Shown here piece by piece: positions 2,358-52,800 of a stretch of 64,000 bases of DNA. The notes below the pieces were generated by a model that was not told where the DNA came from, searched no databases, and saw only the letters and a program-made list of their open reading frames with translations. A program made the position numbers and the translations under genes. Within the stretch, counting starts at the first letter, position 1; each line of letters opens with the position of its first letter. Origin of the DNA: an uncultured virus (IMG/VR IMGVR_UViG_3300013105_000023) (taxonomy: Duplodnaviria; Heunggongvirae; Uroviricota; Caudoviricetes); IMG/VR virus record IMGVR_UViG_3300013105_000023, one strand, 5' to 3'.

Positions 2358-3206
2358 TTATCGAACCTCGGTTGTGGACCATAACTGCACACCAGCCATC
2401 AAACCTTCCGCAATCTGGTGGAAAGCGGCGATGAGTTCGGCGTCGAGCATGGTGATGGATTGTGACGGTGAGGATTGACTGACGATGACTTCATTCATGT
2501 AGCGGGCGATGAAGTCTTCCGCCACGGCCAGACGGTACAGGTCGAACCCGTTCTTTGACTCTTCCGGTTTCATCACCAGGTTAGTGGGGAAGAATTCCAT
2601 CAGAAGCATGTACAGGCCTTGCTGCAGTTTTTTCTTGCTGTACGGCTCACCGACCCGCTCGGCGTAGTCGACAAACTGGTCCAGCACACGGTCGAGGTTC
2701 TGTCGGGCAACCCGCCACATGGAGCCGAGTTTGGCGAATTGGGAGTCGGCATTAGGGTTAATCGCGATGCCTTGCATCCAATAGGAGTGCAGAGCTGCCA
2801 CGCATTCACCCTGGTACTTCTCCAGATTCTCACGCAGGTTGACGCGTTCCTCACAGATTTCGCCGTTAGCGTCGATGACTTCCTGGTTGAACCAGAGTTC
2901 ATCCCGCTTGTCGATACGAATCGAGAAGAGCCACGCGTTAAGCTTACTCAGGGGTAGCACCACGTATTCACTCTCGGTGGCGCCGTCGTTGACAACAATG
3001 ATTTGAGCGAGGAACTTAAGTTCGAACTGTGCACGTTCCAACAATTCGTCGCGGAATGGATCAAGCCCAAGCTGGGAGATGAGGTCGTTGATGATAACGC
3101 CTTGCTCTTCCATTTCGGGGTACTTCACGGTGGGAATGAGACGGCCAATAAAATTGACCCACTGAATGTCTTCCGGGTAATAATGTTTCATGGTGTGTTC
3201 CTCCAT
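2358..3206 (-). CDS. P22_AR_N domain protein, paralogue 3
   Basis: LISQLGLD..VVLPLSKLNAWLFSI..LEKYQGECVAALHSYW..GIAINP. Confidence 0.75.
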   Translation of the reverse strand: MEEHTMKHYYPEDIQWVNFIGRLIPTVKYPEMEEQGVIINDLISQLGLDPFRDELLERAQFELKFLAQIIVVNDGATESEYVVLPLSKLNAWLFSIRIDKRDELWFNQEVIDANGEICEERVNLRENLEKYQGECVAALHSYWMQGIAINPNADSQFAKLGSMWRVARQNLDRVLDQFVDYAERVGEPYSKKKLQQGLYMLLMEFFPTNLVMKPEESKNGFDLYRLAVAEDFIARYMNEVIVSQSSPSQSITMLDAELIAAFHQIAEGLMAGVQLWSTTEVR

Positions 3207-3230: not shown

Positions 3231-3416
3231 TTACGTTGACGCTTTCAAGGCAGGATAAACGTCTTCATACTGATCGATGGCCCTGGTGAGGTCGCCGAAG
3301 AAGCCGAGAGCGTTGCCTGCCGTGTCCCGCAGGTTCTCGAGCGCCCCGGGTTTCCCCAGAGCGGCTTCGAGTTGCCGCAACCGCAGGTAGATTTCCTGAT
3401 ACGTCTCCATGATCAA
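3231..3416 (-). CDS. Hypothetical protein
   Basis: Start overlaps the RtcB stop codon. Confidence 0.55.
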   Translation of the reverse strand: MIMETYQEIYLRLRQLEAALGKPGALENLRDTAGNALGFFGDLTRAIDQYEDVYPALKAST

Positions 3417-4558
3417 CCTTTCACGTTAATGAGCGGTTTGATGTAATGGATGATGTCGACCAGGTCTTCCTGCAGCTCCATCACTTTGAAGATGTCCTTA
3501 TAGGCGAACGGGGATTCGTCGACCGTGCTCTGGCCAACGGTTGCCGCAGGGATATCCTTCATCGCTTCCTGGAATTGCTCCAGCGTCACTTGCTCTTTCG
3601 CCTTACGACGGGACAGCACGCGGCCGGCACCGTGAGACGACGAGTTCATCGATTCCGGATTGCCGAGACCCCGCACGATGAAGCATCCATCACGCATGTT
3701 CCCAGGGATCACACCCATCATGCCCGGGTCCGCATGGGTTGCACCCTTACGGTGGATCCAGCGGCCGTTAACGTATTCGGCGTGATTGTGGTTCCGGTTA
3801 ATGAATTCGAGCGGCTGTAAGTTGTTCACACCGATCACCTGAGCGATCGCCCGCATGGTACGCTGAGCAATCAGCTGACGGTTCGCCAGAGCAAACTGTA
3901 AGCCGTACTCCAGGTTCATGATGTAGTCATTGGCTTCCGGTGTCCCCACCACTAACGCGTGGGCTTCTTCCGGCTTGCCGCCTTTGGCTGCGATCTTCAT
4001 GTAATCCGACGCGATGCCGTGACCGACAGAACGTGAACCGGAGTGGATGATGATCCACAGCTCGGACTGCTCGTCATAGCCGATCTCGACAAAGTGGTTA
4101 CCGCCACCCAGGGTGCCGAGGCACTGCGGACCGTAGCCCACGTGGTCAATCACGTCTTTGGTGAAACGAGCACCCAGGCCGTGAACAAACGGGCGGGCTT
4201 CTTCCGCCTGGCGGGCAGAGTTCTTGGTGAACCCGACCGGCACGTGCTGACGGATCGCTTCGTAAATTGCCTGCTCGTAACCTTCGATGTCACTGGCAGA
4301 GATATTCAGTTTGGTGGCCGACATGCCGCAGCCGATATCATAGCCTACGAACGACGGATAGATGGTGCCCACAGTTGCCACGACGGCACCGATTGGCAGG
4401 ACGTAACCGGTATGAGCGTCCGGCATCAACGCACCCTGGACCACGTCCGGGAGGGCCATACAATTGACAAACTGATCGATAGCGCCAGACTCCAGCACTT
4501 CCGCGTAGATTTTGTATGGCTTACCCAGGGCATCCAGTTTTTTGAGTTGCATTGTCAT
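3413..4558 (-). CDS. rtcB: RtcB family RNA ligase
   Basis: MPDAHTGY, DIGCG, GTLGGGNHFVE, HSGSR, HRKGAT and SHGAGR motifs. Confidence 0.95.
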   Translation of the reverse strand: MTMQLKKLDALGKPYKIYAEVLESGAIDQFVNCMALPDVVQGALMPDAHTGYVLPIGAVVATVGTIYPSFVGYDIGCGMSATKLNISASDIEGYEQAIYEAIRQHVPVGFTKNSARQAEEARPFVHGLGARFTKDVIDHVGYGPQCLGTLGGGNHFVEIGYDEQSELWIIIHSGSRSVGHGIASDYMKIAAKGGKPEEAHALVVGTPEANDYIMNLEYGLQFALANRQLIAQRTMRAIAQVIGVNNLQPLEFINRNHNHAEYVNGRWIHRKGATHADPGMMGVIPGNMRDGCFIVRGLGNPESMNSSSHGAGRVLSRRKAKEQVTLEQFQEAMKDIPAATVGQSTVDESPFAYKDIFKVMELQEDLVDIIHYIKPLINVKG

Positions 4559-5764: not shown

Positions 5765-6460
5765 TTAGAAATTCCACGGCACGATGTGCTTCTCGATGCC
5801 TTCCCGAATGTACTGCATTGCTGTGTCAAAGTCTTGCCCATTCTCCACGCAGAAGACGACGACATCCGTGCACAGAGTGAGTGCAAGGTTGATCATGTCT
5901 AACTGACGGGCGTCGAGGTTGTCTATCGGGGTCATAGCCCCAAAGTTCACCTCTCGTAAACACAACTGGATAATCTCGGTAGCGTCACCGTCCAGTGCCT
6001 TTACGACTTGCCCCAATTGGTAGCGATTGTGGTTAACCAGCAGTCGTCTCCAATCGAGTGCATGCTGCGACGCCTGACTCTTCTCTAAGCGGGACCAGTG
6101 ACGGTCGGCTTCCACCATGAAACGCTGACGGTACTCGGCAAGGTTACCGGCGACGTCGGCCTTCAGGGTTTGGATAGGGATTGAGTACAGGTAGTCGTTA
6201 ATGTTGGCCAACGGGATGAACAGAGAGTTCTGCTTAATCCCGCCGTTGTAAGAAAAGTCCTTGGAGATTTGTAGCGCTCTCACCAAGACCTCATCCCCGC
6301 TCAGTCGGTCACTCTCCGCAAGCAGCGGCAGACCGATTTGTTCCATCAAGCTTCGCATGTCCACGAAGACCATCTCCCCGGTTTCATCCAGGAAGGTGGA
6401 CACACCGGGACCGCTGTCAAGACTGACGTACTCGGCCCGGCGGAAAGTTAACGATTTCAT
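5765..6460 (-). CDS. Divergent P22_AR_N domain protein, paralogue 4
   Basis: VDMRSLMEQIGL..IPLANINDYLYSI..LAEYRQRF..HW. Confidence 0.65.
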   Translation of the reverse strand: MKSLTFRRAEYVSLDSGPGVSTFLDETGEMVFVDMRSLMEQIGLPLLAESDRLSGDEVLVRALQISKDFSYNGGIKQNSLFIPLANINDYLYSIPIQTLKADVAGNLAEYRQRFMVEADRHWSRLEKSQASQHALDWRRLLVNHNRYQLGQVVKALDGDATEIIQLCLREVNFGAMTPIDNLDARQLDMINLALTLCTDVVVFCVENGQDFDTAMQYIREGIEKHIVPWNF

Positions 6461-10433: not shown

Positions 10434-10772
10434 CTAGCTAAAGGACACCGGGAACTTGACCCCAGAATAGTCGTAGTAGAAGACTGCCCAGCCTTCCAGT
10501 GCTGCTTGGATATCCTCACAGGTCGCATCACAAGGGAATCCACCCCATTCATCAAAACCTGGGATTTTGCTATAACCCGGGCCACCGCTGCCTTCGGAGT
10601 CCACTTTCTCACATGCCGCATAGAAGTTGGCGACAGTAAGCAGATCCGCTTCTTCCACAACCATTTCTTCAACGGTCGTAGCATCGGCATCCCCATGCAT
10701 ATATTTCACTTCCAGCACGTACTTGCCGAAGAAACCGAGTGGCGTGTGGCCCACTTTGAATTCACTAAACAT
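10434..10772 (-). CDS. Hypothetical protein, MxGDAD family
   Basis: YMHGDAD..FYYDYSG. Confidence 0.65.
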   Translation of the reverse strand: MFSEFKVGHTPLGFFGKYVLEVKYMHGDADATTVEEMVVEEADLLTVANFYAACEKVDSEGSGGPGYSKIPGFDEWGGFPCDATCEDIQAALEGWAVFYYDYSGVKFPVSFS

Positions 10773-11148
10773 AATCTTTCCACCAGAAATCTACAGAGTG
10801 AGGGAGTCCCTGATCGTCGTACCACAGGACTAACAGGTCTTTGAACCTGCCGTAGCCCCACGCGTCATGGTCGTTTTGGAAAAAGTCACAGAGATCGTCT
10901 TCGTCCCGCTCACCGAGGGTGTCAACAAAGACTTGGTACAAAGGATCCCGGGTGTAACCGTGATCTTTCGTCCACTTGGCGCCGTCGAACATGTTCTTTA
11001 GAGCGATAACCTGCTCTTCCGTTTCCAGCGTTATATGGCCGGTTGGGTAGCTGTCGGCATCACCGAGCATGAACATACACTCAATGACGTAGACCTCCCG
11101 ATGCTCGGATTGCATTACGAAAGGGTTGACCGTTAAGCCATTAATCAT
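10765..11148 (-). CDS. Hypothetical protein, MxGDAD family
   Basis: FMLGDAD..LWYDDQG. Confidence 0.65.
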   Translation of the reverse strand: MINGLTVNPFVMQSEHREVYVIECMFMLGDADSYPTGHITLETEEQVIALKNMFDGAKWTKDHGYTRDPLYQVFVDTLGERDEDDLCDFFQNDHDAWGYGRFKDLLVLWYDDQGLPHSVDFWWKDYV

Positions 11149-11474
11149 ACTGACCTCTTCTTGACGCCCACTTGGACGACCGGAATGTCACCGATGTCCA
11201 CGTTGAACACCACCTTTAACGCCGCCAGAAAAGCCTCGGGCGATTGATCTTCCCAGAGTGCCGCCACCGGTTGGTACCCGACGGCCGACTTGAAGACTTT
11301 CTCCGAGCGATCGTAATACGTGCACGCCTGCAGTTCCTCATAGAGCCGCAAGTCCCGTGTTGCCGTTATCTCAGAGATGTCAAAGAGCTCGACCAGGAAA
11401 GAACGTTTCAGACGGCCGTGCTCGTGGAACATCGCATCGATGAACTTGAGTCGGACAAGCTGTTGGTTCTTCAC
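11145..11474 (-). CDS. Stand-alone wHTH resembling the N-terminus of CapW/BrxR-type WYL regulators
   Basis: RLKFID..HGRLKRSFLVELFDISEITATRDLRLY..YDRSEKVF. No WYL domain; 109 aa. Confidence 0.7.
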   Translation of the reverse strand: MKNQQLVRLKFIDAMFHEHGRLKRSFLVELFDISEITATRDLRLYEELQACTYYDRSEKVFKSAVGYQPVAALWEDQSPEAFLAALKVVFNVDIGDIPVVQVGVKKRSV

Positions 11475-11941
11475 ACTAACCCCGCGTTGAACAGGACGAC
11501 GGTGTTGAAATCCTGGAAGAGCGACTTCGTGTTGAGAATATCTTCAACGGTCATCCAGGAGGCCGGGCCTTCATTTTCAAAGCCAGCGGAAGGTCCGACA
11601 GGGACTTCCACCGTGGCAATCCCGGAGTACACAGCGATCTGGGCACCGCGGAAGTTGATCTCTTGGAGGTAGTCGATCGGGTCTTTCAAATTGCTCAGGC
11701 CAATACCGGTCTCTTCTTCCAGCTCACGGTACGCGGCGTCCCGATAGCTTTCGCCAGGGTCACGTTTACCACAGGGCAGGCCGAGTTGACCGTCTTTCGC
11801 CCGGTGTGTTACGAGCACACGACCGGTGTCTTCAGCGTGGATCACGCACAGGCTGGCCGTCATTTTGACAGTTTGGGCTTGAGTCTCAACGAACGCGGCT
11901 GAAGCCAGCACGTTCTTATTAGCAGTGGGTCGGAGTAGCAT
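11471..11941 (-). CDS. Nudix hydrolase
   Basis: Nudix box GKRDPGESYRDAAYRELEEETGI. Confidence 0.9.
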   Translation of the reverse strand: MLLRPTANKNVLASAAFVETQAQTVKMTASLCVIHAEDTGRVLVTHRAKDGQLGLPCGKRDPGESYRDAAYRELEEETGIGLSNLKDPIDYLQEINFRGAQIAVYSGIATVEVPVGPSAGFENEGPASWMTVEDILNTKSLFQDFNTVVLFNAGLV

Positions 11942-11942
11942 A

Positions 11943-12152
11943 TTAAATCCCTATGACAAATACTTTGATCAAGCCCGCAGTGAAGAGGGCGACGATGATA
12001 ACTAAGGCAGCGATCAGTGTGATAAAACCACTGAGGTCAGATACACGTGCAGGAGGGGGAGTACTGTGGTACGCCTCCCATTGTCTGGCAATAAGAACAG
12101 GAAAGGCCATAATCAGGCAGACACTTAGGACAAAGAAAATCACGTAACCCAT
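11943..12152 (-). CDS. Small 2-TM membrane protein
   Basis: Two hydrophobic helices; coupled to acb1. Confidence 0.6.
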   Translation of the reverse strand: MGYVIFFVLSVCLIMAFPVLIARQWEAYHSTPPPARVSDLSGFITLIAALVIIVALFTAGLIKVFVIGI

Positions 12153-12604
12153 CAGTCTTCCTCAATAGGCTCCCAGCGTTCGCCGGCGAGCATAATAGTT
12201 TGTGGAAATTCCCCTTTGTCGAGCATCATCTTCAACCGGGGGATTTGTTTCACGATGTCCGGACCGTAGCCCAGGCTCATGTGGCAATCGTACTTCGGGT
12301 AGGAATGCTCAAACCCTTTGGTTCGCAGCACCATGTGGCGGCCAACGAGATTCGGACAGTCAAGCTTAAGGACCGCCGCTTCCCATTTACTGCCTGGCTC
12401 ACCCATGTGTTTAATGTCCACGACACGGGCCTGATAGCGGGCTTCCGGCGATGCCTTGGGGTCGATATTTGGGTTACGCTTGTCGTACATCAGCGTGACG
12501 TGCAGCTTGTTCTGCTCCATGCCCTTAATGCCGGCATTGGTTAAAGCTTTGACGATCTTCTTTGCGTCAAGGGAATCGGGTTTTACTTCGGCGTAACCGT
12601 TCAT
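12152..12604 (-). CDS. acb1: Anti-CBASS 2H phosphodiesterase (Acb1, T4 57B family)
   Basis: KLHVTLMY..VLKLD..RH..G..HSYPKYDCHMSLGY..ERWEPI matches the 57B pattern, with two HxT/S motifs. Confidence 0.85.
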   Translation of the reverse strand: MNGYAEVKPDSLDAKKIVKALTNAGIKGMEQNKLHVTLMYDKRNPNIDPKASPEARYQARVVDIKHMGEPGSKWEAAVLKLDCPNLVGRHMVLRTKGFEHSYPKYDCHMSLGYGPDIVKQIPRLKMMLDKGEFPQTIMLAGERWEPIEED

Positions 12605-12933
12605 GACATCTCCAGGGTGATAATTCCGTGATTTCTCCAGACCATGCTTGCAGGGATAGGTAAGGGCCTCATATTTGCGAGGATGAAAGCAGGCTCTTCA
12701 TAAGACCAGGAGTATTCATGACCGTGATCATGATCCACGCCCTTGACGGTCAGAGTATCCGCCGACACCACAAATTGGTTGGTTTCCCCATCCGGCCACT
12801 TGATGGTGCCGACCTTGCCTTTTACAACAACGGGATCAAACCCGTGGATAACATGGAAATCCCTGCGAGATAGCCCGTTGTAACGCCACTCTCCGCCGTT
12901 CCAACCACCGATATGAGTAAAGACTACTTCCAT
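12601..12933 (-). CDS. Hypothetical protein
   Basis: Coupled ORF. Confidence 0.6.
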   Translation of the reverse strand: MEVVFTHIGGWNGGEWRYNGLSRRDFHVIHGFDPVVVKGKVGTIKWPDGETNQFVVSADTLTVKGVDHDHGHEYSWSYEEPAFILANMRPLPIPASMVWRNHGIITLEMS

Positions 12934-13187
12934 TAGCGCCTCCGGGCGAGTTTCTGTGCACGTTTCTTACGGGCCAGGCGGCGATCTTTGGCCACACCGG
13001 TACGACGGGGTGTGTGCTCCTCTGCCTGCTTACGCGGAGAGAGGATCATTGTGTCGCCATCAAAGTCTTTAGGCTCGCCAGAGAACATCTCGGTGTCACC
13101 ACGAATTGCTTGTCCGGTCAAGCCTAAAGCGCTTACCACGCCAATAGCCCGAGATCCGGAACCGATTACCACGATGTCTTTGTCCAT
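12933..13187 (-). CDS. Hypothetical protein with a basic C-terminal tail
   Basis: AGGAG RBS; RRTGVAKDRRLARKKR. Confidence 0.6.
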   Translation of the reverse strand: MDKDIVVIGSGSRAIGVVSALGLTGQAIRGDTEMFSGEPKDFDGDTMILSPRKQAEEHTPRRTGVAKDRRLARKKRAQKLARRR

Positions 13188-13198
13188 CGCAAACTCCT

Positions 13199-13222
13199 AA
13201 AAAAGCCCGGACGAATCCGGGC
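13199..13222 (-). terminator. Intrinsic terminator abutting the next RBS
   Basis: GCCCGGA-TTCG-TCCGGGC-TTTTTT-AGGAG. Confidence 0.75.
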
Positions 13223-17663: not shown

Positions 17664-19220
17664 TTAAGCGGCAATACGGAGAGCTTCCTGGAATTTCTCG
17701 GGGTTGGCGTCGGCAAGCATAGCGACAACTTCCGTCTGCGTGATGCCGGCTTTAACCGGTTCCACATCGCCCCAGTTCCAACCGATTTCACCGTCGGCAC
17801 CGATCGGGAAGTTCAGCCAATCGAACACTTCCTGTGGCCAATCGTTCATGACGTAGAAACCAAGGTTGATGGCTTCTGCGGCCCGAGCGAGCGGCACTTC
17901 GATCTCAATGGAGTCATAGACCGTACACACACAGCGTCCACCCAGTTCTTTCATACGGCGGTTCAGTTCGGTGAACACAATCAGGCCGAGCGTGGAGGCC
18001 GGCGACTGGATCATCACGTTCTGAGCATTACGCTTAGCCGCATTGAATGCCGCAGAGCCGCGGAACATTGGCAGCGTGCCGAATTCCATTTTGCGCTGGG
18101 CGAATGGAGTCACGACGAACTGGTTGTCCGCAGCCATAGCGTGACAGTCGGAGATGAAGGCTTTCACTCGAGGGTAGATGCCGAAGTACGCATCGACGAT
18201 TTCCTGAGCTTCAGACACTTCGATACCCAGGTCACGGGCGATGGAGTTAACCGTAGCGCCGTACAGGAGACCGAATGTGATCGCCTTGGCACCTTGACGG
18301 TAATCCTTGTACTTTTTGTGCTCCGGGTGGTGGTGGTCCTTCACGATGGCCACGAATTCGTCGTAGTCAATGTGGTAAATCATCGAGGCCGTGTACGAGT
18401 GGAAGTCCTTACCGGACACACACGCATCGATCATCGTCTCGTCACCGGACAGGGCGGCGAGGATCTTTACCTCACAGGACGAGAAGTCGAACGCCAGGAA
18501 CACGTAGCCGGCTTTCGCACAGTACAGCTGACGGATGTTGTACCCGTAGTACCCGCGGGGCAGGTTCAGCAGGTTCGGGTCCGACGAGGAGATACGGTGC
18601 GAACTCGTCCCGTGCAGGTTGTAGTTCGGATGCACCCGTCCGTCAGACTTGACCCAGTCGGCCACGTACGTCTTGATGAACGAGTTGTGCATCGACGCCA
18701 CGTCATTACGCTTCTTGATCGCTTCGAGCCACGGCAGCTGGTGTTGCTTGGCCAGGGCCTTCAGGGCATCACCAGAAGTCGAGTCGTCGCCGTGCTTGGT
18801 CTGAATCGGCGCCTTGAAGCCTTTCTCGACGTACAGGAACTCCTTGAGCACCGCCGCTGACGAGAGGTCAATACGCTTACCGATGGCCGTGAAGATCTGG
18901 TCCTCGGTTTCCGCCAAGTCTTCGATCATCCGGTTGTCCATCAAGCGGTTACCCAGGATGTCGTACTCCATCCCGACGATTTCCATGTCGCAAATGAACT
19001 CCAGGGCCTTGGACTTGATGTCAATTTGCTCGGAAAAAACAGACGGTGCGGTTCCGACCGTTCGCTGACCTTGATGATGCCAGACAAAGCGTGGTTTATC
19101 TAAGAGCTTAGGCATCAAGCTCGCCATGAGCTCCAACGTTCCCACGCAGTCGAGTCCTGCGTACGCATTGAGGGCGTCGTAATCGTACCACTCATACGTG
19201 AAGTTGGAAGGTTTTTTCAT
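17664..19220 (-). CDS. polA: Family A DNA polymerase, C-terminal part (ExoIII motif plus polymerase domain)
   Basis: YAGLD (ExoIII) at the N-terminus; motif A FDFSSCEVKILA, motif B RQGAKAITFGLLYG, motif C VYDS. Confidence 0.92.
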   Translation of the reverse strand: MKKPSNFTYEWYDYDALNAYAGLDCVGTLELMASLMPKLLDKPRFVWHHQGQRTVGTAPSVFSEQIDIKSKALEFICDMEIVGMEYDILGNRLMDNRMIEDLAETEDQIFTAIGKRIDLSSAAVLKEFLYVEKGFKAPIQTKHGDDSTSGDALKALAKQHQLPWLEAIKKRNDVASMHNSFIKTYVADWVKSDGRVHPNYNLHGTSSHRISSSDPNLLNLPRGYYGYNIRQLYCAKAGYVFLAFDFSSCEVKILAALSGDETMIDACVSGKDFHSYTASMIYHIDYDEFVAIVKDHHHPEHKKYKDYRQGAKAITFGLLYGATVNSIARDLGIEVSEAQEIVDAYFGIYPRVKAFISDCHAMAADNQFVVTPFAQRKMEFGTLPMFRGSAAFNAAKRNAQNVMIQSPASTLGLIVFTELNRRMKELGGRCVCTVYDSIEIEVPLARAAEAINLGFYVMNDWPQEVFDWLNFPIGADGEIGWNWGDVEPVKAGITQTEVVAMLADANPEKFQEALRIAA

Positions 19221-20246: not shown

Positions 20247-21743
20247 TTAGGCCGTGTGGGCCATTAGCATACGAGTCATCGTTGCCGTGTAGTCTTCCAG
20301 CAGAATGCCGTCGCGGTAACGAACGGACATCAACTCAGCAGCACCTTCAACCGGATGATCATACTGAAGAATCTCACCGAAGTTATTGAGGTACAGGAAG
20401 CGGGGACCGAACTTCGAGGCCTTGGTAGGATCCGTCGCCGGCTTCTTACCGATCGGGCGTTTACCGTTCGCGTCACCGATTTCACACGCCTTCATGGCGT
20501 AGCGTTCAGTGTCACGCACGACGTCCTGCAGCAGAGCGCCACCCATACCGAACGCCATGTTCTCAATGGAGAAACCGTGGGCCTTCACTTCATGACAAAT
20601 ACGTTCGATGCTCTCTTCGTTGATACCGTCGCCGTAAATCATGCGGACTTTCGGGTTCAGCACGCGGTAGCCCTTGGAGTTGATGGTGCCACCGAACTTA
20701 TCCCAGAGAATATACAACACGGCCACTGACTCTTCTTCCGGTACGCCAGAATCCGGACGGAGCACCAGGCGGGCGTTCATCGCTTTGATACGCTCGATGT
20801 TGGCCGTACCCCAGTGATCAGCCACGTTACGGTGGGCGTCGACCGAGTCAATTACTGACGCGAAGATCGGACCGTCACCGAACTGGGTGATCATGTGGTC
20901 GTTGAACGCGATTTCCTGTTCCGGAGAGAGTCCAAACGCCGTCGCCGTTGAGTGTTCAGATGCCGGGATGGTGCCACCGCCGGTGCCAGGCTCCTGATGG
21001 TAGTAAATCCGCAGGCCGTCAACGGCTTCAACGGTGTCGGTACCACGAGCACCGGTCAGCAGGTGAGCCATACCACCCAGCATTGCGCCTTCATGACCGG
21101 TCGCACCGCGGGCACCGAAGTCATTCAGCATGAACGTCATCAACGAATCGACGTCATCATCAGTGGTTTCTTCCAGGTGCTTACGGATAGTCGCCTGCAC
21201 GGCCATGCTGACGGCACCAACGGTGGTCATGTACCACACGCCACGGAGAAGAGCAGTTTCGAACGGTGAGACCAGCCACGCGAAATCGGGATGGGTTTCC
21301 TGAACGTACACCATCGGCACACCCGGCTTCACGACACAACCTTCCGGCAGGGCTTTGATTTCCACCGGCCACTTTCCGCCAAACTCGTCGACCACACGAC
21401 GGTAACCGGCTTCATTGAACGGGGCGCCGTACTGCGGGTTGAAAGCTTTCTGCAGATCAATGTGCTTGTGCGTCAGCGGACGCGTCATGAACTCCTTCAG
21501 GAACGGCTGAATGAAGAACGGGATCTTGCCGTGCTTGGCACCGAAACGGGCTTCGATGTAGGACAGCAGGTGGTTGGTGCCGATCGGGTACTGCAGGAAC
21601 TGAGAGAACTTGTAGCCATCCATCCACGTCAACGGGTTGAAGTTGTACTCGTTGAAGATGCGGTGACGTTCGTTCGGTTGGCCGTGCAGGTCAATCATCA
21701 TCTTGGCCTGGTGCTGAATGTTGCTGATAAAGCTCATATCCAT
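20247..21743 (-). CDS. nadV: Nicotinamide phosphoribosyltransferase (NAMPT/NadV)
   Basis: DGYKFSQFLQYP, LNDFGARG, PASEHS, RPDSG, GDG and FGMGGALLQ motifs. Confidence 0.92.
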   Translation of the reverse strand: MDMSFISNIQHQAKMMIDLHGQPNERHRIFNEYNFNPLTWMDGYKFSQFLQYPIGTNHLLSYIEARFGAKHGKIPFFIQPFLKEFMTRPLTHKHIDLQKAFNPQYGAPFNEAGYRRVVDEFGGKWPVEIKALPEGCVVKPGVPMVYVQETHPDFAWLVSPFETALLRGVWYMTTVGAVSMAVQATIRKHLEETTDDDVDSLMTFMLNDFGARGATGHEGAMLGGMAHLLTGARGTDTVEAVDGLRIYYHQEPGTGGGTIPASEHSTATAFGLSPEQEIAFNDHMITQFGDGPIFASVIDSVDAHRNVADHWGTANIERIKAMNARLVLRPDSGVPEEESVAVLYILWDKFGGTINSKGYRVLNPKVRMIYGDGINEESIERICHEVKAHGFSIENMAFGMGGALLQDVVRDTERYAMKACEIGDANGKRPIGKKPATDPTKASKFGPRFLYLNNFGEILQYDHPVEGAAELMSVRYRDGILLEDYTATMTRMLMAHTA

Positions 21744-21747
21744 GGGA

Positions 21748-21903
21748 TTATCCTTTAGCGATGTCAATAAAGAAAAGGGCTGCGTTAAACATTGCGGTAC
21801 CTACCAGAATAATTCGACCGGTAAATGCCATAGGCGTGCAATTACTGCGGCCCAACGACATGAAGATAATTGTCGTCAGGAAGAACCATTCCCCGTGTGT
21901 CAT
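21748..21903 (-). CDS. 51-aa 2-TM membrane protein (not in the ORF track)
   Basis: MTHGEWFFLTTIIFMSLG..IILVGTAMFNAALFFIDIAKG; ATGA-coupled to the i-spanin. Confidence 0.5.
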   Translation of the reverse strand: MTHGEWFFLTTIIFMSLGRSNCTPMAFTGRIILVGTAMFNAALFFIDIAKG

Positions 21904-22795: not shown

Positions 22796-24034
22796 TTAAC
22801 CTCGAGAGAAAACGAGACGTTTGATGATTTCAGCGTGGTCTTCGAAGAGCTCAGAATCGGCCTTCAGGATTTCACTGAACGTGAACCAGCGGACGGCTTC
22901 GGCGTCGTCGTCGGCACGTACCTTCGGACGCTTCTCGAGACCCAGGTGATCCAGGTTAAAACGAGCGGCGTGCGTAATGGTGCGGCCACGCAGCGAGCGG
23001 CCAGGGTTGTCGAACACTTGGATCGGCTGCATGATTCGCAGCAGGTCGTCGTTGGCGACGGCGATACGGGTTTCTTCACGCAGCTCACGGATGATGGAGT
23101 CACGGATCCACTCTTTCGGACCGAGGAACCCGCCGGGAAGCGCCCAGAGGCCTTTGCCCGGGTTGAACTTGCGGCGAATCATCAGGATTGACGACTTGTG
23201 AGTCACGACAGCGTCGGTGGTCACGAAGGTTACTGGGTACGGTGCCATAGACCACGAGAACTTATCATCGCGGTAGCGCTGTGATTCCGCCCGCATGTCA
23301 AAGTAACGCTCAGACTTCACGTAATCTTCCAGGAACTGGTGCATGCTCGCCGGCGAGTTCAGCTTCAAGTGGGTCATGTCCGGCATCATCCGCAGGATAC
23401 GGGCGTACTTGCCGTCCACCTGGAAGTGCTGAATCAGACCGTACGAGTTGCCGATGAAGTCTTTGATCATCGCCGACAGCACTGGGCCGTCTTTCGGATC
23501 CAGCGCCTGCAGGATATCGAAGAGACGTGGCAGGAAGGTGTAATCTTTGGCCGGCTCCTGATCGAAGAGCTCTCGACGGAAGTCGGTGGCGTTCAGGTTG
23601 CGGTCATTTGGGGCGTTGTAAAAGTTCCACTGTGGGAAAGACTTGAGGTAATAAGATGATTCGTCCTTCTCATGGCCAACCAGGACGACATCTTCATCTC
23701 GAATGCGATAGCCTGACTCTGGCAGTTGCTCTTCGGCGTAAGCTGCCACGGCGTTCATGACGTTTAACTGCCACTGCTCTTCCCGGTAGTCGTCCGCCAG
23801 CGGTTTAACGGAGACCCAACGGGCTTCATGACCCATTTCCTGCAGGGCACCATAGATAACGGCTTCACGGTCACGGTAATTGAAAGGGTTACTCGGAGAC
23901 GGTGCCTTGTCGGCAGAGCCTACCAGAACTAAAAGTTGATCGGCCTTTTTCGCCGCTTCACGGAACAGGTGGATGTGGCCATTGTGCAGAAACTGCATGC
24001 GGCCGATTACTACAGCTAACTTGTATTGCTTCAT
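22796..24034 (-). CDS. Bifunctional NMN adenylyltransferase / Nudix hydrolase (NadM-Nudix, NatV-like)
   Basis: IGRMQFLHNGH, NPF, ALPGGF..RELREET, DDA and FEDH motifs. Confidence 0.92.
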   Translation of the reverse strand: MKQYKLAVVIGRMQFLHNGHIHLFREAAKKADQLLVLVGSADKAPSPSNPFNYRDREAVIYGALQEMGHEARWVSVKPLADDYREEQWQLNVMNAVAAYAEEQLPESGYRIRDEDVVLVGHEKDESSYYLKSFPQWNFYNAPNDRNLNATDFRRELFDQEPAKDYTFLPRLFDILQALDPKDGPVLSAMIKDFIGNSYGLIQHFQVDGKYARILRMMPDMTHLKLNSPASMHQFLEDYVKSERYFDMRAESQRYRDDKFSWSMAPYPVTFVTTDAVVTHKSSILMIRRKFNPGKGLWALPGGFLGPKEWIRDSIIRELREETRIAVANDDLLRIMQPIQVFDNPGRSLRGRTITHAARFNLDHLGLEKRPKVRADDDAEAVRWFTFSEILKADSELFEDHAEIIKRLVFSRG

Positions 24035-24091
24035 CGTATGGTTCTCCAAAACGAGTGAGTAGGGTGTCGGTCCTCCGAGCACCCAGACAGT

Positions 24092-27112: not shown

Positions 27113-27921
27113 CCGCTGCTCCCACTTGAATCACTGGAAGAGCCAGAGTCGTAAGACCCATAGTCGTGGCTGCTGTGTGAACTGTGGCTGGAATGACTCG
27201 AATGCCGAGAGCTGTCATCGCTATACGAGCTGTGAGAACGGCTCGGAGCGTCGCAGGACCCAACATCGACTGAACGTGAAGGTTCACTCAGCACGGAGTT
27301 CATGATCAGCATCTGGGTCATCATGGCATCGCTCTGAGAAGAACGTGATCCACGGTGACCATGATTATGTGCACGGGTTTCCGGTCTGTGAGGGCGTTGA
27401 GCCCGCTGGGCCCGAGCGATCAACCGCTCAGTTTCCGCTTGGTTATGACGGAAAGAACCATCCTGCATGATGCGACCCTGCTCCACCGGCAAGTCTGGTG
27501 CCACAAAGAGGTCGGCTCGGGTCAACGGTTGTTCCGGTGGCAGGCTCGACCGTACGATCTTAGCCCGCAGCGGTTTCAACGGCTCACGGACTTCCGGTTT
27601 CTCAAGCGACATGTTCACCGCCGCCCGCACGTCACGTTCAGTAACCGGCGTCAGGGATGCCGCGTAGCCCACCAGTACCGAAGCCGGTCCCCAGTAAGTC
27701 TTGCGGAACCAGCCTTTCTGGAGGATACCTGGGCCCGGACCGCGTGCTTTACGGAACAGGCCGTGTTTACGAACAGGAATCCCGACCCGGTCCAGGGCCC
27801 AGTGCTGCGGCGCTGCCCGGTCGTTACGCATGTCCATCACATTGTACAGATCGCTCAGACAATAGAGCGGACCATCCACACGGATCGAGCAGAAGTCATT
27901 AATCTTCAGTTTCTTCATCAT
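27103..27921 (-). CDS. KilA-N-like DNA-binding protein with a Ser/His/Asp low-complexity tail
   Basis: IRVDGPLYCLSDLY..PQHW..TYW..LVGYAASLTP; tail SSHSSHSSHSSH..GCD. Confidence 0.65.
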   Translation of the reverse strand: MMKKLKINDFCSIRVDGPLYCLSDLYNVMDMRNDRAAPQHWALDRVGIPVRKHGLFRKARGPGPGILQKGWFRKTYWGPASVLVGYAASLTPVTERDVRAAVNMSLEKPEVREPLKPLRAKIVRSSLPPEQPLTRADLFVAPDLPVEQGRIMQDGSFRHNQAETERLIARAQRAQRPHRPETRAHNHGHRGSRSSQSDAMMTQMLIMNSVLSEPSRSVDVGSCDAPSRSHSSYSDDSSRHSSHSSHSSHSSHDYGSYDSGSSSDSSGSSGCD

Positions 27922-29272
27922 CGTTTTCCTCAGTTTCCTTGCCAGCTTTTTCCGCTGCCACCAGTGCCTTAATTTTGTCTGCATCGAGTGTTTCATCGAG
28001 CAGCTCCTCGTAACCGCCGATGCCCAAGTGCGGCACGTGGTCCCACATCGCGGCCTTCAGACCGTAGTTCCCCTGGATCCCAGAGTTCAGGGAGTGAATC
28101 ATGTACATCGTGTCGAAGATACGCCCACGGACGCGGACGCCGGTGGTCACCGCACAGTACTTGATATCAAACTTCACGTTGTGACCCACTTTCGCACGCT
28201 CGGACAGTAACACCGCCTTGACGTACTCCCACGCTTCTTCCGGTTTGAAGAACCGCTGATCTTTGTGCCACAGTGGAACGACGATCGCTTGCACCTTCCC
28301 GTCCGGACGGCGGTAGCCGAACTGGGACGTCAGGATGCGAGCATCTTCAGCCCACGGATCCAGGCCGGTCGATTCCAAGTCCCAGGAAATCACCTGGTTT
28401 GGCGGCAGCCTGAGGATATCTTCCATGGTATCGCGGACGTGGTCAAGTGTCGTGCACACAAATACTTGGTCCGCAATGATCCGTTCCAGGTTCTCCCGCA
28501 AACCTCCCACGGCAATCTGACCGTCGAGGATGCGGCGAATCTTGGTGAGATCGTTGATGATGACGCCGGTGTAATCTGACCCGTACATCTGACCGGACGC
28601 ATTCTGGCGAAGCATGTTGAGCACTTTCGCATGCAGCGTCAGGACGGTAGGAATAGGCGGCAGACCGTCAAGTTCCGTGTGGTAAAACTCTCCACGGTTC
28701 TTGTAGTTCGACTTCTTGGCCAGACCCAGGGCCTTGGTCACTTCGGTCGACATCGAGACGATTGCTTTCGGGCGGGTCCGACGGATTTCTTCCATCAGGT
28801 AGACCGAGCACGGTGCCATCTGCGTGTACGTCAGTTTGACCCGGTCTTCAGCTTCGAGGTTCGGGCACTTGATCAGGTTCAGCACTTTAAAGTGCACGTC
28901 CTTACCAAACGCCAAACGGGCCATGGAGGCGATCTGCTGGGCGTGCAGCTGGTTAACCTGTCCTGCTGTCTTCCACCCGTCGGGGCCGGCACGGTGATCC
29001 TGAATGATGACCACGTCGGCACGGTCGGTGTTCAGGTCAGCAATGAGCGGCCGCTTCATGGAGCACGGCAGTTTGCACACCTTCTCGCAGTACCGAGGGC
29101 GAATTTCCGAGAAGTCTTCTTTGGCCTGAATCGCTTTGGTCACGGCCGTAGTCATCTTCTCTTGGGCGTACAGTTGGTCGAGATCCATGTCTTGGATCTT
29201 GGTGCGTTTCGGTTTGGGTTCGGCCTTGGGTTTGGTGGTCGATGCCCGCAGCTTTGGCGAGTTTATAGCCAT
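27899..29272 (-). CDS. Family A DNA polymerase, N-terminal part: UDG-like domain plus 3'-5' exonuclease (ExoI, ExoII)
   Basis: LNLIKC..C..YL.EEI...RPKAIV..LH (family-4 UDG-like); WDLESTG (ExoI), GHNVKFD (ExoII), DTM, YGLK. ExoIII is absent. Confidence 0.85.
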   Translation of the reverse strand: MAINSPKLRASTTKPKAEPKPKRTKIQDMDLDQLYAQEKMTTAVTKAIQAKEDFSEIRPRYCEKVCKLPCSMKRPLIADLNTDRADVVIIQDHRAGPDGWKTAGQVNQLHAQQIASMARLAFGKDVHFKVLNLIKCPNLEAEDRVKLTYTQMAPCSVYLMEEIRRTRPKAIVSMSTEVTKALGLAKKSNYKNRGEFYHTELDGLPPIPTVLTLHAKVLNMLRQNASGQMYGSDYTGVIINDLTKIRRILDGQIAVGGLRENLERIIADQVFVCTTLDHVRDTMEDILRLPPNQVISWDLESTGLDPWAEDARILTSQFGYRRPDGKVQAIVVPLWHKDQRFFKPEEAWEYVKAVLLSERAKVGHNVKFDIKYCAVTTGVRVRGRIFDTMYMIHSLNSGIQGNYGLKAAMWDHVPHLGIGGYEELLDETLDADKIKALVAAEKAGKETEENDDEETED

Positions 29273-29531
29273 GAATTGCCTCATCTACAGTGCGTTGAAA
29301 GTGAATGGAAATCCACTTCGCGTAAGGCGAAATGAGTTCCAGGCGGACCCAGATTCTACCATAGTCATCCTCGATCCGCACTTTCTTTGGTTTACGCAGA
29401 CGGTGGAACCCGCCGGTGAGCAGCCAGCGGGGTGGGCTTTTGTAATCCGGACGCTGGGACGCCCGGAACACATCGTGAAGCCTAAACCACTCGCCTTCCT
29501 GCCGGATTACGCATCCGTCGATGACGAGCAT
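29037..29531 (-). CDS. KilA-N domain protein
   Basis: IDGCVIRQEGEWFRLHDVFRAS..PPRWL..WV..ELISPYAKWISIHF...V. Confidence 0.7.
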   Translation of the reverse strand: MLVIDGCVIRQEGEWFRLHDVFRASQRPDYKSPPRWLLTGGFHRLRKPKKVRIEDDYGRIWVRLELISPYAKWISIHFQRTVDEAIHGYKLAKAAGIDHQTQGRTQTETHQDPRHGSRPTVRPREDDYGRDQSDSGQRRLLGNSPSVLREGVQTAVLHEAAAHC

Positions 29532-31690: not shown

Positions 31691-31831
31691 GACTCTCTAT
31701 ATATCTCTAAAAAAGCCTTAGTAAGTAGTTTATAGTATAGGGGAACAGTTACACTATAGAGTGTGTCAAGGTTCGCGTACCAGACGTATCGGCGTACCAA
31801 CTCCTCGCAAACCCGCGTGGTGTAAGGCTTT
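31691..31831. repeat. Non-coding origin-like element, copy 2
   Basis: Colinear with 23-163. Confidence 0.9.
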
Positions 31832-31871
31832 CGCTTGGAACATTTTGGGAACGTGGGGCGTATCAGACAAG

Positions 31872-31892
31872 AAAAAGCCCTCCGAAGAGGGC
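31872..31892 (-). terminator. Intrinsic terminator, identical to 33819-33839
   Basis: GCCCTC-TTCG-GAGGGC-TTTTT. Confidence 0.8.
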
Positions 31893-51915: not shown

Positions 51916-51939
51916 ACCGTGACTAACCTGGAGAACACA

Positions 51940-52800
51940 ATGGGATTGACAAAATACTACGAGGATATCTGTGATCGGTATCCTATCCTCAGTCGTGAGG
52001 AAGAAAACAAACAACTGGGCATTTACTTCTCGACAACCGCCTCGGCCAAAGAGAAGTCACAGGCTCGGGATATCCTCATTTGCTCAAACCTGCGGTTTGT
52101 GTTCAAGAAAGCCAAACGTTACTCCCGTGGGAACGTCGAGCAGTTTGAAGACCTGATCGCAGCAGGCAATGAAGGCTTGCTGGCCGGTCTGGATAAGTTC
52201 GATCCAACCAGTGGGGTTCGCTTACTGAGCTACGCCGGCTGGTGGGTCATGCAGCGTCAGCTAAAGGAAATGTCCCGCTGGCGCCTGGTCGCCCTTCCTG
52301 CTCAGAAGCAGCAACTCGCCACAAAGATCAAGAAGTTCGTTGAGTCTAAGGACGAGATGCCGAGCATTGAAGAACTGCGTGAAGAGTTTCCCAATGCGTC
52401 CATCAAGGATCTGCGTGAACTGAGCAAAACCCAGTACATCACATTCTATCTGGACAACATGAAGGAAACCGACACACCGATTGTCCACCCGATTGATCAG
52501 TTGGTGGAAGAACTGGAGAACGATAGCTTGCTTACGGCTATCAATGCACTGCCCTATCCGGATAATGAAATCGTGAAGATGTCTTACGGAATCGTCGATG
52601 GGGTTGAAATGAAACCCGTTGAGATCGTTCGCGTCTTAGACAATCCGAAATATAATCAGGCGTACGTTAAGCGGTCCCTGGTGAAAAGTGCTGAGGCATT
52701 GCGTCTAGTTATGGTGGACGGTTACGGGCAAACGACAACTTCCGGGTATGACGTTCCGTCCAGCGCCCTGGGGTATATCGAGAACGACCTGCCCTGGTAG
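51940..52800 (+). CDS. Sigma-70 family RNA polymerase sigma factor
   Basis: Region 1.2 Y..DI..YPILSREEE; region 2 LICSNLRFV...AKRY, DLIAAGNEGL....KFDP..G.RLLSYAGWWV. Confidence 0.9.
   Translation: MGLTKYYEDICDRYPILSREEENKQLGIYFSTTASAKEKSQARDILICSNLRFVFKKAKRYSRGNVEQFEDLIAAGNEGLLAGLDKFDPTSGVRLLSYAGWWVMQRQLKEMSRWRLVALPAQKQQLATKIKKFVESKDEMPSIEELREEFPNASIKDLRELSKTQYITFYLDNMKETDTPIVHPIDQLVEELENDSLLTAINALPYPDNEIVKMSYGIVDGVEMKPVEIVRVLDNPKYNQAYVKRSLVKSAEALRLVMVDGYGQTTTSGYDVPSSALGYIENDLPW

Follow-up and report, generated by a model that had tools for sequence, protein, structure and literature searches.

A large uncultured phage encodes a 109-aa protein that is a phage-borne member of the BrxR/CapW winged-helix family without the family's sensor. 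It is not a full CapW/BrxR repressor, as it lacks a WYL domain and no operator of its own was found. We analysed one stretch of 64,000 nucleotides (the window), which is a portion of a large phage genome. Among cultured phages, Salmonella phage Arash (181 kb) is the closest to it; Arash infects Salmonella, and the host of the window phage may differ. Two complete uncultured relatives, G002 (176 kb) and G003 (183 kb), served for comparison, and G002 proteins in the compared region are mostly 88-99% identical to those of the window. Judging from the recognition helix and the host operators that go with it, we tentatively propose, with somewhat less than even confidence, that the protein would act as an uninducible repressor mimic at host defence operators.

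A winged-helix head without a sensor

Sequence, profile and structure searches agree on the identity of the 109-aa protein. All 5/5 matches to PDB sequences were CapW or BrxR proteins (best 7tb6, E 9.6e-7), and a profile of its family recovered the same five structures (E 1.7e-15 to 1.4e-8). The AlphaFold2 model has a pLDDT of 94; in a Foldseek search with it, every listed match below E 0.001 was CapW/BrxR. Its cluster is assigned to PF26109 (WHD_BrxR), which places the protein in that family. A preliminary sequence-only reading had recognised a CapW-type winged helix-turn-helix lacking a WYL domain and had named an HHpred or Foldseek search against CapW/BrxR as one check, and both parts of this description are borne out.

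The chain consists of a winged helix, a first linker helix that spans residues 79-89, and a tail of 20 residues, and it stops at residue 109 with both the WYL and the WCX domain absent. The next gene encodes an unrelated phrog_8562 protein, and eight further members of the cluster are 107-109 aa long; thus, the WYL loss is not a local break. The likeness to CapW/BrxR extends beyond the winged helix into the first linker helix, which in BrxR is described as running alongside its partner helix, in parallel, in the middle of the dimer (PMC9122601; 10.1101/2021.12.19.473356). By alignment, two backbone-binding arginines are kept, R8 corresponding to R17 of BrxR-Efer and R24 to R32 of Sm CapW, and R8 is invariant or nearly so across the aligned relatives. 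Both R17 and R32 are reported to be needed for DNA binding (10.1101/2022.01.04.474952; PMC9122601). The S42/Q45/S47 motif of CapW reads S34/T37/T39 here, so that the CapW pattern S-x-x-Q-x-S is lost.

A decaying fragment without current function might be suspected from the gene, which differs from its G002 counterpart by five synonymous and five non-synonymous codons, a ratio weaker than that of most neighbours. We consider this highly improbable, however, since the protein is intact in 9/9 members of its cluster with residues 2-49 unchanged, its length and tail are conserved across unrelated phages, and its predicted fold is confident.

A coupled run of eight genes

The open reading frames for Acb1, a 69-aa protein, a Nudix hydrolase and the 109-aa protein are all on the minus strand where the sequence-only reading had placed them, and the identities it gave them hold. 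The four-gene unit it described is a slice that it picked out of a longer run, since eight genes, from 13187 to 10434, are coupled with every junction overlapping or 1 base apart (Table 1). A terminator-like hairpin lies ahead of the run, in a scan that gave 8 such sites where shuffled sequence gave 7.9. Two stretches of the 69-aa protein are hydrophobic, with Kyte-Doolittle 19-residue means of up to 2.9 and 2.8; family searches returned no match for it, and it weakly matches the gene following acb1 in Arash. The homologue of the 127-aa phrog_8562-like protein in Arash is encoded directly upstream of the winged-helix gene. The Nudix protein matches PF00293 (E 3.5e-16) with a full Nudix box (G58-G79), and no subfamily could be assigned from its family matches.

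Table 1. Features of the window and of related loci (window coordinates unless a locus is named)
Feature	Position	Strand	Basis
84-aa protein, basic tail, first gene of run	12933..13187	-
110-aa protein, coupled upstream of acb1	12601..12933	-
Acb1-family 2H phosphoesterase (predicted), 150 aa	12152..12604	-	PF23474, both catalytic motifs
69-aa protein, two predicted membrane helices	11943..12152	-	hydrophobicity
156-aa Nudix hydrolase	11471..11941	-	PF00293, complete Nudix box
109-aa BrxR/CapW-type winged helix	11145..11474	-	sequence, profile, fold matches
Recognition-helix codons S34-E-I-T-A-T-R40	11355..11375	-	alignment to host WYL repressors
127-aa phrog_8562-like protein, coupled downstream of winged-helix gene	10765..11148	-
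112-aa second phrog_8562-like protein, last gene of run	10434..10772	-
Terminator-like hairpin and T run, 17 bases ahead of first gene of run	13205..13222	-	pattern match
NAMPT and NMNAT-Nudix genes	20247-21767, 22796-24082
Three P22 antirepressor-N proteins, one below cut-off	616-1410, 2358-3206, 5765-6460
HU-like protein	294-569
RtcB	3413-4558
Sigma-70 factor	51919-52800
DNA polymerase A domain	17664-19220
3'-5' exonuclease domain	27899-29284
Dispersed non-coding element	25-215, 31776-31875
WYL-regulated PDC-S38/DUF1883/nucleotidyltransferase operon	L106 293-2635, L107 2535-4882, L076 1498-3888
75-aa heads	L006 3974-4201, L027 9974-10201
151-aa bacterial BrxR-like ORF	L047 1333-1788

NrtR is a type of regulator that joins a Nudix domain to a winged helix, and the Nudix and winged-helix genes of the run overlap by 4 bases. 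The window also encodes nicotinamide phosphoribosyltransferase (NAMPT) and an NMN adenylyltransferase-Nudix protein (NMNAT-Nudix), a NAD-rebuilding pair of the NARP2 kind (pathway name as in PMC13464706). A split, NrtR-like regulator of the phage NAD genes is nevertheless barely credible: the winged helix is BrxR-type, one gene separates it from the Nudix gene in Arash, none of 29 relatives is fused to a Nudix domain, and inspection by eye of the ORF lists around the prophage carriers turned up no recognisable Nudix gene.

Several other features of the window were noted. It encodes three P22 antirepressor-N proteins, an HU-like protein, RtcB and a sigma-70 factor; its DNA polymerase A and 3'-5' exonuclease domains are on separate ORFs ~9 kb apart, possibly a split polymerase. 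A non-coding element of ~200 bases that contains a long imperfect palindrome occurs twice in the window and in at least 5 copies in G002 (~6.8, 43.5, 77.4, 111.9 and 151.1 kb); five sites in Arash match it more weakly, at E 0.007-0.8 (L066 6765, L068 6511, L070 268, L071 18615 and L073 13388). These elements are candidate replication origins or recombination sites.

A phage-borne family of sensor-less heads

Among 1.84 billion representatives, 29 matches were found: 26 short proteins (76-153 aa), two full-length WYL proteins and one spurious match. Loci with such a sensor-less head occur in the large phages Arash, fHe-Yen9-02, G002 and G003, in lambdoid and plasmid-like prophages, on an Enterobacter plasmid and in Stenotrophomonas phage Sonora, and a structural relative is present in Pantoea phage LIET2. 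The carriers are unrelated phages and prophages, and in every locus examined small accessory genes surround the head gene, which stands mid-operon.

In a tree of 62 rows, with duplicates and the 151-aa bacterial row L047 left out, all 35/35 sensor-less rows of ~100-120 aa fell on one side of a branch with support 100/94, in a set collected by likeness to the query, a sampling that favours the grouping of sensor-less rows. The branch kept an SH support of 94 in a core-only tree, and its support collapsed once the recognition-helix columns were removed. Recognition-helix sequences vary widely across the family. Heads of 75 aa, which have no linker helix, cluster separately; the two at L006 and L027 keep a CapW-type S-x-P-Q-A-S helix and are, by this sequence, better candidates for mimics at CapW sites than the 109-aa protein. 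The ORF at L047 is apparently truncated or frameshifted.

The recognition helix is shared with three host regulators

The recognition helix of the 109-aa protein reads SEITATR (S34 to R40). We compared it with 54 full-length relatives, taken from two sets of 401 genomes, four plasmids and two database proteins; 24 genomes matched in the enterobacterial family sample, and 32 matched in the order-level sample, with 30 loci returned. Three of the 54 regulators carry a SEITA[S/T]R helix, which is a 7/7 identity when Ser and Thr at position 6 are merged. One is on the G094 element, one on Klebsiella plasmid NZ_CP110173 and one on Yersinia ruckeri plasmid NZ_CP071803. Outside the helix, the three are 31-36% identical to the 109-aa protein against a background of 22-41%, and the helix is the single fully host-matching 7-residue window among 60 in the core. 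The motif is retained in the Arash and G003 heads, at 43-45% overall identity. With the helix columns removed, the three regulators nest among host rows, away from phage rows; a joint clade of phage and matching-host rows is not rejected (p-AU 0.225, 78/93 rows kept).

The match was noticed after the fact. Its chance is 7e-4 from column frequencies, p is 0.015 when the sensor-less helices are shuffled, and p is 0.106 for a full match in any of 24 sensor-less lineages. The shared helix is suggestive and falls short of proof. Hosts with an exact match are rare: a SEITA[S/T]R regulator is present in 1/401 sampled genomes, and a search of 5,426 E. coli genomes gave no match at the DNA level. Records in the cluster of the matching regulator carry the names Klebsiella, Raoultella, E. 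coli and Salmonella enterica. An Arg ends the helix, at position 7, in 26/35 sensor-less rows and 28/54 full-length rows, and Arg40 may be simply inherited, as Arg is the commonest residue among the latter.

A predicted operator at host defence loci

The three SEITA[S/T]R regulators are divergent to an operon encoding a 56-aa protein, a DUF1883 protein and a Pol-beta nucleotidyltransferase. The 56-aa protein, scanned in its Klebsiella copy, matches the PADLOC candidate PDC-S38 (E 1e-32). The operon sits on small plasmids and an integrative element, and on the G094 element Hachiman and a DRT3b gene lie within 13 kb. We found no paper on this operon, which we regard as a candidate defence system. 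The 56-aa PDC-S38 gene also precedes other genes beside related regulators (L077, L083, L084 and L109).

An intergenic palindrome, GCATATC-N5-GATATGC, is common to the three loci, strong in two and weak in G094. Leave-one-out scores were 25.4, 13.6 and 6.7, and a fourth locus, with helix AEAAASR, scored 20.1. Among 52 full-length loci, those with an Arg-ending helix have the core ATC-N5-GAT in the 200 bp upstream in 19/27 cases and the others in 2/25, with a shuffle chance of ~6% per locus. Counted by lineage, the core is present in 8/11 Arg-type versus 2/11 other lineages (p 0.03), and without the four loci that had suggested the motif it is present in 15/23 Arg-type loci. A helix-to-operator table drawn from host loci L032-L055 and L076-L109 includes a natural control, the loci that have ACCTAAT as outer arm: the base adjoining the spacer is C for helices with a final Arg (L098, L105) and either A or G for those with a final Lys or Gln (L044, L054, L096). 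The L044 palindrome is the one reported to be bound by V. cholerae BrxR in a gel shift, and the site geometry is that of this proven BrxR site (10.1101/2025.11.13.688357). From these pairs we infer that the 109-aa protein would bind a site with the core ATC-N5-GAT, for which GCATATC-N5-GATATGC is the best guess. Arg at helix position 7 would likewise predict ATC-N5-GAT for host BrxR-family regulators, which is useful in itself.

The loci of this type are associated with diverse defence genes. PADLOC, run on 41 ORFs beside Arg-type loci, recognised BrxA, BrxB, a type I methyltransferase, DrmD-like and HmaA helicases, as well as JetA, HKD+Snf2, mad2 and a Cas12f-like match, and no CBASS gene within these 1.5 kb flanks. 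Arg-type host loci thus flank BREX, restriction-modification, Wadjet, Hma and the candidate defence operon. Two regulators were found on the CBASS side, at L081 and L082: one adjoins a confirmed CBASS cyclase, the other is a regulator closely homologous to the first, and the helices of both end in Ala. The CBASS target that the sequence-only reading had assigned to the head finds no support here, as same-helix host loci flank other systems and the CBASS-side regulators differ in helix.

The head and acb1 do not form a module

By its sequence, the 150-aa neighbour is an Acb1-family 2H phosphoesterase, as first read: it matches Pfam PF23474 above cut-off (E 2.6e-14) and the solved Acb1 chains 7t26, 9q2g and 9q2y, and both His-x-Thr/Ser motifs are present (H35/T37 and H108/S110). 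The sequence-only reading combined it with the head into a two-layer anti-CBASS module, in which the head would silence CapW-controlled CBASS while Acb1 and the Nudix hydrolase destroy its signals, and suggested co-occurrence with acb1 as a check. Consistent with such pairing, Acb1 is encoded by 4/4 large phages that carry the head, the two genes share one coupled run in the window and G002, and they are 4.5 kb apart in G003 and 4.5 kb and six genes apart in Arash.

Other observations argue against a module. The genes are 89 kb apart in fHe-Yen9-02, and gene order in the region is shuffled among relatives. The same Acb1 search that was positive in the four large phages found no Acb1 in 5/5 smaller carriers, among which are 3 virus records with a completeness of at least 90%. 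Within one collection, 94 phage records match the window's Acb1, whereas three head queries matched at least 3 records, a lower bound since LIET2 was missed. Furthermore, the last helix residue of the solved CapW proteins is Ala, Leu or Ile where the head has Arg, their Gln is Thr in the head (T37), and the neighbours of Arg-type loci include no CBASS gene, as noted above. An uninducible CapW is also reported to leave CBASS against lytic lambda unweakened (10.1101/2022.01.04.474952). We conclude that the head and acb1 share a variable region and are not a module; adjacency is not conserved and most carriers have no nearby acb1, so a dedicated anti-CBASS pairing is very unlikely. A part for the Nudix hydrolase in clearing immune signals likewise finds no support here. 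On the best explanation, the head gene is accessory and independent of acb1, with no dedicated role beside it against CBASS.

Search for target sites in phage DNA

If the protein instead regulated the phage's own genes, as an Aca-like repressor or a timing regulator domesticated from a host BrxR, its sites should lie in phage DNA. We scanned the window, G002, G003 and Arash (180 of 181 kb) with the site model. The best sites scored 12-16, equal to shuffled maxima, and almost all were in coding DNA. Sites scoring above 11 were about twice the null count, and weak phage sites are possible because leave-one-out host scores go as low as 6.7. Non-coding ATC-N5-GAT cores were not enriched in the four sequences (observed 1, 6, 8 and 4; expected 2.5, 9.4, 8.9 and 9.1), and G002, G003 and Arash had none in common. 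Ahead of the coupled run we found neither a promoter nor a palindrome of operator type, and G002 and Arash have no operator-type palindrome in common, most matches being terminators.

Regulation of the phage's own genes would follow a known pattern, in which HTH repressors are co-encoded in anti-defence operons (Aca; PMC13551039), and one old phage-borne branch with many helices would fit drift together with an own operator; the doubled count of weak matches points the same way. Set against this are the missing palindromes and conserved cores, and the mid-operon position of the gene at every locus examined. We therefore rate an own-gene regulator as rather unlikely, though it is the strongest of the rivals. 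Placement also differs from that of CapW and BrxR, since the head gene is mid-operon and not beside a defence operon, and no palindromic operator was found in its own promoter region. Taken together, these scans lean toward a host target.

Proposed action on host defence operators

The repressor-mimic reading is supported by a helix that the head shares with host regulators whose operator can be named, at moderate statistical significance. The sequence-only reading had also proposed an uninducible mimic; the sensor-less head, the kept arginines and the predicted host operator favour that part, and CBASS as the controlled system is not supported. The protein probably dimerises and binds a 9+5+9 palindrome, as its DNA-contact residues and first linker helix are kept in the alignment; against a dimer, the WYL and WCX domains that it lacks are described as making up much of the host dimer (10.1101/2022.01.04.474952; PMC9122601). 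Its helix would read ATC-N5-GAT in the promoters of host WYL-repressed loci, as judged from the host helix-site pairs. Without a WYL domain, the head should not be releasable by single-stranded DNA (PMC11662680), and it would therefore re-occupy operators once the host repressor lets go. Such re-occupation would cap the induction of BREX-, restriction- and Wadjet-type operons and of the candidate defence operon.

A wider version of this proposal, in which we have slightly less confidence, is that sensor-less heads of phages and prophages share host WYL operators through a helix-to-site code, with Arg at helix position 7 reading ATC-N5-GAT, and super-repress several defence systems, the target of the 109-aa protein being the SEITA[S/T]R-controlled PDC-S38/DUF1883/nucleotidyltransferase operon. 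Such heads would prevent these systems from being induced together, whether by DNA damage or by priming through infection, and repressor mimicry would then be a transcriptional form of anti-defence.

The head might also act at the protein level, pairing with host BrxR/CapW through its linker helix and locking or poisoning it, or bind DNA with low specificity in host takeover. The kept linker helix aligns with the cross-over helix of BrxR, the N-terminus of the recognition helix has no basic residue, and helices vary widely in the family. Against pairing, exchange of subunits would be slow because the host dimer is intertwined. Against loose binding, three phages at 43-45% identity have kept a host-type helix unchanged, as would be expected if binding depends on the sequence of the site. 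We consider protein-level action or loose binding unlikely.

The benefit of a repressor mimic would depend on the carrier. An uninducible CapW is reported to weaken strongly the protection that CBASS gives against prophage induction (PMC11662680). In V. cholerae, BREX induction is described as too late for a first infection; an uninducible BrxR did not weaken defence against a first lytic infection, and a counter-defended phage yielded more in a second infection (10.1101/2025.11.13.688357). The same source reports no cross-talk among V. cholerae WYL repressors, and a fall of BREX during productive infection that it leaves unexplained (10.1101/2025.11.13.688357). Given these results, prophages that carry a head would clearly benefit, and for a large phage a benefit is plausible, though smaller. 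The window shows no sign of lysogeny, and a gain from the head for a lytic phage appears doubtful; a large phage may gain if defence is kept at a level that its inhibitors can still cope with.

WYL repressors gate many defence systems. In the literature outside subscription papers and supplements, we found neither a published description of a sensor-less head nor a phage protein acting on the WYL-repressor gate. What we newly propose is a named operator and a helix-to-site rule for such a head, and the rule also predicts operators of uncharacterised BrxR-family regulators. If the mimic reading is true, counter-defence would act on induction and not on immune proteins, and this would explain why prophages, blocked by CapW-induced CBASS at induction, have heads in their early regions. 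If it fails, the protein would be a more modest finding, namely a regulator that a phage has derived from a defence repressor of its host.

Comparison with known systems

The neighbouring Acb1 shares both motifs with the characterised enzymes (7T26, 9Q2G), and as a predicted enzyme it shows nothing unusual. Aca proteins, like the 109-aa protein, are small HTH proteins co-encoded with an anti-defence gene; unlike them, the 109-aa protein has a fold derived from a host repressor, and no operator was found in its own run.

The closer comparisons are with the host repressors. CapW (7TB6, 7TB5, 9C5G) has in common with the 109-aa protein the fold, the first linker helix, R32 (R24) and S42 (S34), with S47 appearing as Thr. 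CapW has WYL and WCX domains and Q45, whereas the 109-aa protein lacks both domains, has Thr in place of Gln and has Arg at helix position 7; and CapW represses CBASS, whereas the 109-aa protein is phage-encoded, mid-operon and away from any defence operon. BrxR (E. fergusonii 7QFZ, Acinetobacter 7T8K/7T8L, V. cholerae SXT) shares PF26109 and R17/R11 (R8), and the site predicted for the 109-aa protein has the same two arms and 5-base spacer. The 109-aa protein differs in having no sensor, in a dimer that is only predicted and in a recognition helix unlike that of all five solved members. The full-length WYL regulators WP_032752185.1, WP_049688246.1 and that of G094 have the identical helix and, in 2/3, a similar wing, Y-D/N-x-S-E-K-x-F. 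They keep their WYL-WCX part and stand divergent to the PDC-S38 operon, while the phage head, 31-36% identical to them elsewhere, has the helix without the sensor.
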